DNA of 64,000 bases from Candidatus Poribacteria bacterium (GTDB lineage Bacteria; Poribacteria; WGA-4E; WGA-3G): NCBI GenBank assembly GCA_022394775.1, contig JAGFCB010000030.1, forward strand, positions 18,852 through 82,851. The letters are read 5' to 3'. Every line of letters starts with the position of its first letter. Within the stretch, counting starts at the first letter, position 1. The notes below the pieces were generated by a model. It had not been told where the DNA came from. It was given only the letters and a program-made list of their open reading frames with translations, and searched no databases. Positions 5,451-7,259 of the stretch are shown piece by piece. The position numbers and the translations under genes were made by a program.

Positions 5451-5658
5451 TACAGTAGTTTGGACAATTTTAAGAGATCCAAGGTTTTTGATCGGACACG
5501 CTCTTTTGTAGCATAGGAGGCTGTTGGTTTCCTGTAGCACATTCCCAGTTACCGTCATTTTTCCGCAAGTTCTGGAGCAGCCGAAACATGCATGAAAATC
5601 TCTATACCCTTTCAGAACGCAACCCAAACGCAGGACAAATTGTCCAAACTTTAGTAGG
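5451..5658. repeat. pair of inverted 13-bp arms (GTTTGGACAATTT / AAATTGTCCAAAC) about 165 bp apart
   Basis: Arms at 5458-5470 and 5637-5649 are perfect reverse complements. The distal arm is part of the perfect palindrome GGACAAATTGTCC (5633-5645). Confidence 0.5.
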
Positions 5659-5834
5659 TTACACTACCCCATGTTGCTCCGTAAACGGTTTGTTCACTTG
5701 TAGATGTTAATATATTTTTATAATTCACCATAATACGCACTATTTCGTGCAGTCGAGTCTAAAGAATGCCCTATTTTGTGCAGTGCCTTCTCTGCGTTAT
5801 GTAGAAAATCCCGTCAGTATGGTAGTGTTCCGAT

Positions 5835-5850
5835 TGGCACGAAACTTGCT
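5835..5850 (+). promoter_or_regulatory. sigma54 (-24/-12) promoter
   Basis: TGGCACGAAACTTGCT matches the TGGCACG-N4-TTGCW consensus at every defined position. It lies about 130 nt upstream of the 5979 start codon. Confidence 0.75.
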
Positions 5851-5978
5851 AAATGGCTAAATGTTTAATGTAAATAACGTAAGTCCAGTGCCGATGTATA
5901 GATCGGTTCGCTTCACCCACAAAAGTTATGTAGAGATGGCAAGTTAGGTTACCATAAATGACCCACAGGAGTGTTTAT

Positions 5979-7259
5979 ATGCCCCGTCAAAATTACACTA
6001 AACACATCAGGCACGCAATCAGTTTGATGATAGCGGCTTCGGTGTGCATATCTGCACCCACCGCTGCGTTCAAACCCATTGATCGTCAGATTCCCGATTT
6101 CAACACCATACTCGACGTTAATATTTTGATGCACAGGGTCCATGATGCACACTGGAAAATTAATTACGGGTTTTCCGAGGAATGTAATCACGAATACCAC
6201 GCCAATCCGAGCAGTGAATTAGTAGAACTCGAAAAAGCGATGGAGCTCGCTTTGCAGACGTGGTTGCAACCCCTCCGTGAGATAGAAACCAAACGTCCTA
6301 TCGTTGACAGTTTTAGTTTCAAACGCACCCAGTTGGAGACGTGGGAGGAACTCACAACTGAGGGTGTAGATTTAGTGGACATCCAGTTTGATTGCTCCCC
6401 GGTGGGATCCTTCTCGTATGCGAGCCTGAAGAAAGATAGACGCGCCGCTGTCGTGATACGTTTGGGGAGGGTCCGGATCATCCAACACACTACCTTGATG
6501 TGGGAACTTGTGCATGAAATGGGCCACGCTTTCGGTCTCGCAGATACCTACGACCGTGTAAGAGGGGGGACCCTCGGTATGCAACCTGTTTCTCTCATGG
6601 CTTGCAGTTTGGATTACCTTGACGGTGTTCGGGCGCCTACACGATTAAATCGGGACACCATAGCAGCGTTTTCAAGAAAATGTTTGACAGAAGACGATAC
6701 AAAGGGTATTCTATGGCTCTATAGGGTCTTTTATGAAAACCAATCTATCACGGATTGCTCTTTTTCAGACTATACCTTTGAAGAAGACACGGGTGGGTTT
6801 CGTCCGAAAGCCCCACTATTCTTTGGAATCAAACACGGTGCCCAGAGTTACCTCAGCCAAATCATAGAAGATAATCCGAATATGGATATAAATGTTCGAG
6901 ACGAATCTGATCGCACGATCCTTGATTATGCTGTTATAAACGAGTACCCAGATGTGTTGCGTAAATTATTATCACGTCCAGATCTCAAGGTGAACGCTCA
7001 GAACAGCGCAGGTCAAACAGCCCTGCATCTTGCGGCCAGTAATGATTACTTAGTGGGAGTGGAAACACTGTTGAAGCATCCCGACCTGAACGTCAATACT
7101 AAGGATAAACAAGGGAGGACACCACTTTACTGTGCTGCTGAAGTTGATGCTGTGGCATCGGTGAGAGCGTTAGTGCAGCATCCCGAGATCATGTTTTGTG
7201 AAGTCAGTTCACAAACGTTTTCTGCCCGGAGGTATTTTATCATAAACCTACTGGATTAA
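5979..7259 (+). CDS. secreted metzincin-like zinc metalloprotease fused to C-terminal ankyrin repeats
   Basis: Signal-like N-terminus. HEMGHAFGLADTY is an HExxHxxGxxD motif as in snapalysin, and DDTKGILWLY is matrixin-like. At least three ANK repeats follow (GQTALHLAA..., GRTPLYCAA...). The ATG at 5979 follows AGGAG. Confidence 0.75.
   Translation: MPRQNYTKHIRHAISLMIAASVCISAPTAAFKPIDRQIPDFNTILDVNILMHRVHDAHWKINYGFSEECNHEYHANPSSELVELEKAMELALQTWLQPLREIETKRPIVDSFSFKRTQLETWEELTTEGVDLVDIQFDCSPVGSFSYASLKKDRRAAVVIRLGRVRIIQHTTLMWELVHEMGHAFGLADTYDRVRGGTLGMQPVSLMACSLDYLDGVRAPTRLNRDTIAAFSRKCLTEDDTKGILWLYRVFYENQSITDCSFSDYTFEEDTGGFRPKAPLFFGIKHGAQSYLSQIIEDNPNMDINVRDESDRTILDYAVINEYPDVLRKLLSRPDLKVNAQNSAGQTALHLAASNDYLVGVETLLKHPDLNVNTKDKQGRTPLYCAAEVDAVASVRALVQHPEIMFCEVSSQTFSARRYFIINLLD

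Follow-up and report, generated by a model that had tools for sequence, protein, structure and literature searches.

Poribacteria are uncultivated sponge symbionts that encode many eukaryote-like repeat proteins, which are assumed to mediate host interaction. One of the questions that such proteins raise is when they are produced, and to our knowledge nothing is known about this timing. The question can be asked at a gene (5979-7259) for a protease with ankyrin repeats, which lies in a stretch of 64,000 nucleotides (the window, C90:18852-82851) from a Candidatus Poribacteria metagenome-assembled genome (MAG; 5.9 Mb, 331 contigs, 47% G+C). We analyzed the DNA in front of this gene and compared it with the rest of the genome and with related genomes. 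Based on this analysis it is highly probable that the gene undergoes enhancer-dependent transcription by sigma-54 through two upstream activating sequences, UAS1 and UAS2, and that it is a member of a single regulon of about 24 promoters. The mechanism would be that of a textbook enhancer-dependent promoter, whereas the regulon is previously undescribed; a literature search found nothing on sigma-54 in Poribacteria. The features that are discussed below are collected in Table 1.

Table 1. Features of the promoter region, of the window and of the genes that stand behind regulon promoters
Feature	Position or contig	Strand	Remarks
Sigma-54 -24/-12 promoter TGGCACGAAACTTGCT	5835..5850	+	all 12 defined positions match; GG and GC 10 nt apart
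Predicted leader	5861..5978	+	~118 nt; GGAG ribosome-binding site at 5968-5971
Semi-conserved element GGTAGTGTTCCGAT	5821..5834	+	directly 5' of -24; from an anchored alignment of 15 regulon promoters
UAS1, distal box CGCACTATTTCGTGCAG	5736..5752	+	centre near -117; matrix score 24.7 bits
UAS2, proximal box TGCCCTATTTTGTGCAG	5767..5783	+	centre near -86; top matrix score, 30.6 bits
Promoter-plus-leader cassette	5737..5951	+	215 bp; C90:24588-24802 ~92% identical to C201:3558-3762
Regulated gene	5979..7259	+	426 aa; signal peptide, metzincin-like protease domain (HEMGHAFGLAD, Met207), ankyrin repeats
Palindrome GGACAAATTGTCC	5633..5645		190 bp upstream of the promoter; right arm starts TTGTCCAAACTTTAGTA box
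Recurrent box, right-hand copy TTGTCCAAACTTTAGT	5640..5655	+	
Recurrent box, left-hand inverted copy	5458..5473	-	~90 nt upstream of a divergent ABC ATPase gene starting at 5368
NtrC-family response regulator	46897..48288	-	Response_reg (REC), Sigma54_activat AAA+ with GAFTDA loop, HTH_8
MoxR AAA+	C172		behind regulon promoter
VWA proteins	C31, C120		behind regulon promoters
DUF4159	C155, C221		behind regulon promoters
PD40 propellers	C145, C201, C269		behind regulon promoters
WD40	C89, C201		behind regulon promoters
Ycf48/BNR, including a 1375-aa protein	C170, C311		behind regulon promoters
TPR/YfiO-like	C311		behind regulon promoter
SGL-like propeller	C285		behind regulon promoter
PhyH dioxygenase	C15		behind regulon promoter
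No family call	C309, C174, C239, C295, C110		behind regulon promoters

A preliminary description of the window had noted a perfect -24/-12 consensus about 130 nt before the gene. Its coordinates are correct, and the distance from the 3' end of the element to the ATG at 5979 is 128 nt. The rarity of such a perfect match was examined over the whole genome, where the strict pattern TGGCACG-N4-TTGCW is found 27 times, against the 1.24 matches that its composition would predict; the reversed pattern is found once, and with wrong spacers there are one to three matches. By crude longest open reading frame (ORF) calls, which cover 88% of the genome and leave 12% outside, 21 of the 27 strict sites are intergenic, a density per base about 25 times that in coding sequence, and nearly all of these intergenic sites aim at a gene start on the same strand 30-330 nt downstream. 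The 16-mer is uncommon inside genes, and the frequent occurrence in coding regions that would have pointed to chance is not seen. The genome also encodes an intact RpoN (an ORF of 621 aa with region I and the RpoN box) and 14 full Sigma54_activat genes. Because rpoN is intact, activator genes are present, the motif is enriched and its sites are mostly intergenic, the promoter stands beyond chance. Thus, TGGCACGAAACTTGCT looks like a genuine sigma-54 promoter, and the original call, which is strengthened by three orthologous loci that keep the site, was right.

By analogy with the usual distance between -12 and +1, transcription is predicted to start near 5861. The final ~30 nt of the resulting leader are conserved with the orthologs, and its RNA fold shows no unusual structure (z-score +0.75). 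The element that directly precedes -24 is semi-conserved, with a subset consensus of gtAtt.Ttc..At in some regulon promoters. An Rfam scan of the intergenic region gave a chance-level match only (14.8 bits vs a gathering score of 127), and a scan of the same region for sigma-70 promoters and terminators found sites no more numerous than in shuffled sequence.

The next question is where an activator of this promoter would bind. The likely enhancer is a pair of boxes in the same orientation, and not the palindrome further upstream to which the preliminary description had assigned this role; the elements that are conserved and that recur in the genome are UAS1 and UAS2, which were absent from that description. 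The two boxes are spaced by 31 bp, which is three helical turns, and the -24 element begins 68 bp after the first base of UAS2 (67 bp counted from the G). A position-weight matrix made from 30 sites has the 17-bp consensus TGCCCTATTTYGTGCAR, and the orientation of the box is identical in all 30 aligned sites. Its core, GCNCTATNTNGTGCAG, has eight copies in the genome, all of them intergenic, and several precede other strict sigma-54 promoters. When mismatches are allowed, box pairs 29-32 bp apart are found at 15 loci, in most of which the distance from the proximal box to the start of -24 is 65-67 bp. A genome-wide scan with the matrix gave 47 matches with 19 bits or more, and some 40 of these precede a GG-N10-GC element whose score is 10/12 or higher. 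The offset from box to promoter is mostly 64-68 for the proximal and 97-100 for the distal boxes. A few loci have shorter offsets that are still in phase, and at two loci with an inserted repeat the offset is stretched to about 180-230. This repeat, GGACTTACGCAGCCCC...CTGCAG...GGGTTTCAAACCCCGCCTGCA, stands between the proximal box and -24 at C120:48950-49130 and on the minus strand of C145 (~25380-25560). Altogether, the same layout is present at about 24 promoters in the genome, or about every second one of the 46 intergenic sites with a score of 11/12 or more, and since the promoter at 5835-5850 shares it, the protease-ankyrin gene would belong to a single regulon with them.

One further locus (C64:20888-21108) carries a good tandem pair before a gene for a 952-aa repeat protein, where the GG-N10-GC is lost and the sequence reads TGGCAATTTAGATGAT; it is possibly a decayed member of the regulon. 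The C-terminus of this 952-aa protein resembles, by eye, a type IX secretion sorting domain.

That boxes can be kept where GG-N10-GC is lost shows that decay does occur, and it may be asked whether the 16-mer in the window is also a decayed or a chance match, with the gene driven by another promoter, such as one at the TTGTCCAAACTTTAGTA box at 5640-5655. Boxes of this kind often lie 14-100 nt before start codons in the same orientation and may carry promoter activity, and there is a weak sigma-70-like site at 5707-5734. Yet, every defined position of the consensus is matched in the window, the element is conserved in three orthologs and its offset from the boxes is exactly that of the regulon, while the sigma-70 scan showed no excess over shuffled sequence. 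We consider such an alternative promoter to be very unlikely.

The elements TGGCACGAAACTTGCT, UAS1 and UAS2 can also be followed in other genomes. The orthologous loci L003 (genome G006), L069 (GCA_003635205.1) and L070, whose proteins are 55-59% identical to the window protein (59% for L003), keep UAS1, UAS2 and TGGCAC(G/A)GAATTTGC, and their other intergenic DNA has diverged. At L003 the proximal box is ~10 bp farther from -24 than in the window. A composite pattern, GTGCA-N24-28-GTGCA-N49-53-GGCAY-N6-TGC, was scanned across the phylum and is present in 103 of the 151 genomes, with the reversed control at 0 everywhere; nearly all genomes of family f1 have 2-11 matches each and those elsewhere have 0-1. 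With the second gap relaxed to 25-55, 21 matches were found in 12 genomes, with lengths only of 79-81, 89-92 and 99-103 bp, and within the genome of the window the offsets are 47, 54-56 and 64-68. The spacing thus shifts by whole helical turns, in steps of ~10 bp, which fits an activator that is confined to one face of the DNA. In family f6, a DUF4159 gene (L051) is preceded by tandem boxes, TGCCCCATTTCGTGCAC, whose starts are 30 bp apart, the proximal one starting 67 bp before the promoter TGGCATATTATTTGCT. The presence of the same boxes and promoter at this gene indicates that the core of the system predates the family. It appears from these comparisons that the regulon runs through this Poribacteria family and that at least the DUF4159 promoter is common to a second one. 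In families f3 and f4 the pattern scans revealed no promoter with tandem boxes; the strict pattern among them is too insensitive even in positive controls.

At two of the protease loci, L003 and L068, a second match to GGCAY-N5-TTGC is seen on the plus strand (3774-3787), just 3' of the protease gene and before the next gene; in L068 this next gene has a 974-aa product with no family call.

Several observations weigh against a single regulon controlled through these boxes. The closest ortholog of the protein (L067, 77% identity) is without the promoter, the gene of another ortholog (L068) starts only 55 bp behind its upstream gene, and the large arrays of protease-family paralogs in G006, G024 and G021, which were checked for sigma-54 control, did not reveal the promoter. 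No tandem box was found by the matrix scan near any of the 14 activator genes. The division into intergenic and coding sites rests on the crude ORF calls. Lastly, a cassette that contains the promoter and leader is ~92% identical between the window and C201, where it precedes a PD40 propeller gene that is unrelated to the protease-ankyrin gene. This cassette has evidently been copied between genes, and the recurrence of the layout is therefore partly a result of recent duplication and not of independent selection.

The palindrome GGACAAATTGTCC has to be weighed as an enhancer in its own right. The preliminary description gave its position and its distance of ~190 bp correctly; it is perfect, the distance suits enhancers, and a near-palindrome of related sequence, GTTTGGACAATTGTCTCCAAAC, stands ~375 bp before the promoter of the ortholog in G006. 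However, perfect 6+6 palindromes with a loop of 0-4 nt occur at 0.5 per promoter by chance between -260 and -60 of the 46 best intergenic sigma-54 sites, and such a frequency means that the palindrome is not beyond chance; with up to one mismatch it has one occurrence in the window vs 0.17 expected. In the genome GGACAANTTGTCC is found at just four sites, three of which are coding. Moreover, the right arm of the palindrome is the start of a box of 15-19 bp, TTGTCCAAACTWTAGTA, that varies in number from genome to genome, and no TTGTCCAAAC box is present within 400 bp of any of the 45 remaining intergenic sigma-54 promoters. Recognition of the palindrome by the activator of this promoter is thus most improbable.

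The box itself has other properties. Its 10-mer has 52 copies in the genome vs about 11 expected, the extended box is intergenic in 27 of 30 cases, and the exact 15-mer is present in 0 to 85 copies per genome within this order. It is a multi-copy element whose copies form inverted pairs that face outward at a spacing of 180-360 bp, and in G136 it is found near many contig ends, each time at the same offset of 124. The interiors of four box pairs in this genome gave no alignment among them, and no target-site duplication is evident at the window copy. Judging from these patterns the box behaves as the end of a mobile element, though one that may be described only as like a miniature inverted-repeat transposable element (MITE). 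Copies without a partner are often seen 14-44 nt upstream of a start codon, and the box may serve there as a portable promoter or operator.

A mechanism that fits transcription from the -24/-12 element through UAS1 and UAS2 can be proposed from the example of NtrC at glnAp2. A single sigma-54 activator would occupy both boxes as two dimers that share one face of the helix, in response to a presumed inducing signal, and these dimers would nucleate the active ATPase ring. They may then contact the closed sigma-54 holoenzyme over a short phased loop and drive the formation of the open complex. The glnAp2 promoter of E. coli and Salmonella has two sites for NtrC dimers about three helical turns apart, upstream of -24/-12. 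Both systems have a consensus -24/-12 element, two sites about three turns apart (here 31 bp) and half-sites of the GCAC/GTGC type, the box of the sister genus g9 reading TGCAC-N6-GTGCA, and the 10-bp spacing steps suggest that the dependence on the face of the helix is also shared. There are differences as well. The NtrC site is TGCAC-N7-GTGCA, whereas the box here has six central bases (TGCCC/TGCAC-N6-GTGCA), is asymmetric in this genus (TGCCC...GTGCA) and is always in one orientation. Also unlike at glnAp2, the sites stand at a shorter distance from the promoter (near -86 and -117), nitrogen-assimilation genes are absent from the regulon and no activator reaches the NtrC equivalog cut-off. 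Because of the 6-nt centre, the asymmetric oriented box and the absence of nitrogen genes, this is not an NtrC regulon.

Which of the 14 activators may then bind the boxes? None of them reaches the cut-off of an NCBIfam equivalog, and neither PrsR nor NtrC proper is among them; the most NtrC-like recognition helix among them is that of C309_53883 (RNTLHTKL). No activator was found near the DUF4159 promoter of f6 at L051. From each of the 14 activators the C-terminal 120 residues were joined into a chimera, with which six genomes were searched, and only two activators, the regulator in the window and the orphan response-regulator activator C228_27397 (27397-28884, minus strand), have orthologs in every box-bearing lineage (g9, f2 and f6). 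Orthologs of both are present also in f3 and f4, in which the scans gave no promoter with tandem boxes.

The first of these is the sigma-54 activator with a GAFTDA loop to which attention had already been drawn; it is real, and is encoded in an operon of glpK, kinase and regulator genes. In addition to its phyletic pattern, its recognition helix is well conserved to f6 (SRRKLQHRMQKY vs SRRRLQYRMEKY), where the boxes are nearly identical. On the other hand, it is equally conserved in f3 and f4 (58-64% over the C-terminus), it lies 41 kb from the promoter with no box near its operon, and it matches no NCBIfam equivalog. The phyletic test, furthermore, was run with short segments of a chimera, and orthologs of other activators may have escaped it where they have diverged. 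It is therefore possible, but rather doubtful, that the window regulator binds the tandem boxes. For C228_27397 the phyletic pattern is the same, and its f4 ortholog (L066, G027) has lost the GAFTGA loop, reads ELFGNEQSEDTY and probably no longer contacts sigma-54, in a family that is without the regulon. Yet, the f3 ortholog is intact although f3 shows no tandem boxes, the recognition helix is less conserved to f6 (SRRTIQRKVKEY vs GKKTIFRKIKKY) and there is no positional link, so that control of the regulon by C228_27397 seems unlikely. The remaining probability belongs to other activators or to an error in the phyletic test.

Some other arrangements of activators and promoters were noticed in this genome. 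At C192:2986-5649 there are two tandem genes for receiver-less activators of 367 aa, with a strict sigma-54 promoter 39 nt before the first. With this arrangement, which is similar to that of HrpR/HrpS, the locus suggests autoregulation. Other sigma-54 promoters form small classes that share upstream sequences, such as C88:3918 with C297:19701 and C85:6207 with C79:9955. Near the C79 activator, for example, there is a palindrome of the TGCCAAATTGGCA type, and beside the C297 activator there is an upstream region of ~100 bp that is shared.

The product of the regulated gene had been described as a metzincin with ankyrin repeats, and this is borne out by its zinc motif, its fold and its repeats. 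The residues H179, E180, H183, G186, D189 and M207 do not vary among 55 homologs, and both the HEXXHXXGXX(H/D) motif and the Met-turn of the metzincins are thus present. A fold search with the whole protein was swamped by ankyrin designs, and the protease domain was modelled separately, with a predicted local distance difference test (pLDDT) score of 82.8. The top PDB matches to this domain model in Foldseek are metzincins only (MMP-20, MMP-12, snapalysin, adamalysins and ADAMs), with E about 1e-4 and modest TM-scores of 0.35-0.58. By sequence, the Pfam model Peptidase_M10 is not passed (14.6 bits vs a cut-off of 24, E = 0.031), and the match to MMP-20 is weak and below threshold. The protein thus resembles the matrixin, snapalysin and adamalysin metzincins in its HExxHxxGxxD motif, its invariant Met-turn methionine and its matching fold, and is unlike them in its fusion to ankyrin repeats and, in the orthologs, also to an FGE-sulfatase domain. 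These orthologs (P0002-P0008) have ~700 aa, with the FGE-sulfatase domain (PF03781) at the C-terminus; it is absent from the window protein and no remnant of it was found within 3 kb downstream of the gene. The family seems to be confined to Poribacteria-like metagenome bins.

The other genes behind regulon promoters (Table 1) point to a common theme, as they encode mostly secreted or envelope proteins, many of them of eukaryote-like repeat type (PD40, WD40, Ycf48/BNR, TPR, LamG-like), while the MoxR, VWA and DUF4159 products make up the envelope group. PrsK/PrsR is a system in which a sigma-54 activator is proposed to control genes for secreted PEP-CTERM proteins (NCBIfam TIGR02915). The likeness here lies in a sigma-54 regulon of secreted or envelope proteins, four or five of which share a C-terminal tag, ...KLxTTWGxLK. 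Unlike in PrsK/PrsR, no activator reaches the TIGR02915 cut-off and the tag is not PEP-CTERM, and the resemblance is functional only.

The tag was also surveyed over the genome. In the form (A/P)V(E/D/S)P-x-x-KL(A/T)TTWGx(I/L)K, followed by 0-8 residues, it is found in 152 of 4623 crude ORF products, and most of the 152 genes are outside the regulon. Its bearers include many proteins of 210-350 aa and PD40 propellers, and two of them are encoded on the plus strand of the window (39530-40255 and 40550-41428); the same tag appears in the alignment consensus of the protease-ankyrin paralogs. The tag has the look of a C-terminal sorting signal that is specific to the lineage.

A wider picture, which we offer tentatively and do not hold to be the probable one, is that of a family-wide switch. 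In sponge-associated Poribacteria a dedicated sigma-54 activator, acting through phased and oriented tandem boxes, might turn on secreted eukaryote-like repeat proteins (ankyrin-protease, WD40, PD40, BNR, TPR) together with a MoxR/VWA/DUF4159 envelope module. This regulon might have begun as an ancient DUF4159 core and gained members through the spread of a portable promoter-plus-leader cassette of ~215 bp to other genes. The near-identical cassette before two unrelated genes illustrates how genes can be recruited into an enhancer-dependent regulon. Together, the box, the spacing and the promoter make up a cis-regulatory code over about two dozen genes, and this gives a list of candidates for co-regulation. 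The code also yields a prediction that can be tested in metatranscriptomes, and short DNA probes with which the activator, and after it the signal, could be identified in vitro without culture. If the family-wide switch is real, the host-interaction proteins of these symbionts would be controlled by a signal and would not be produced constitutively.

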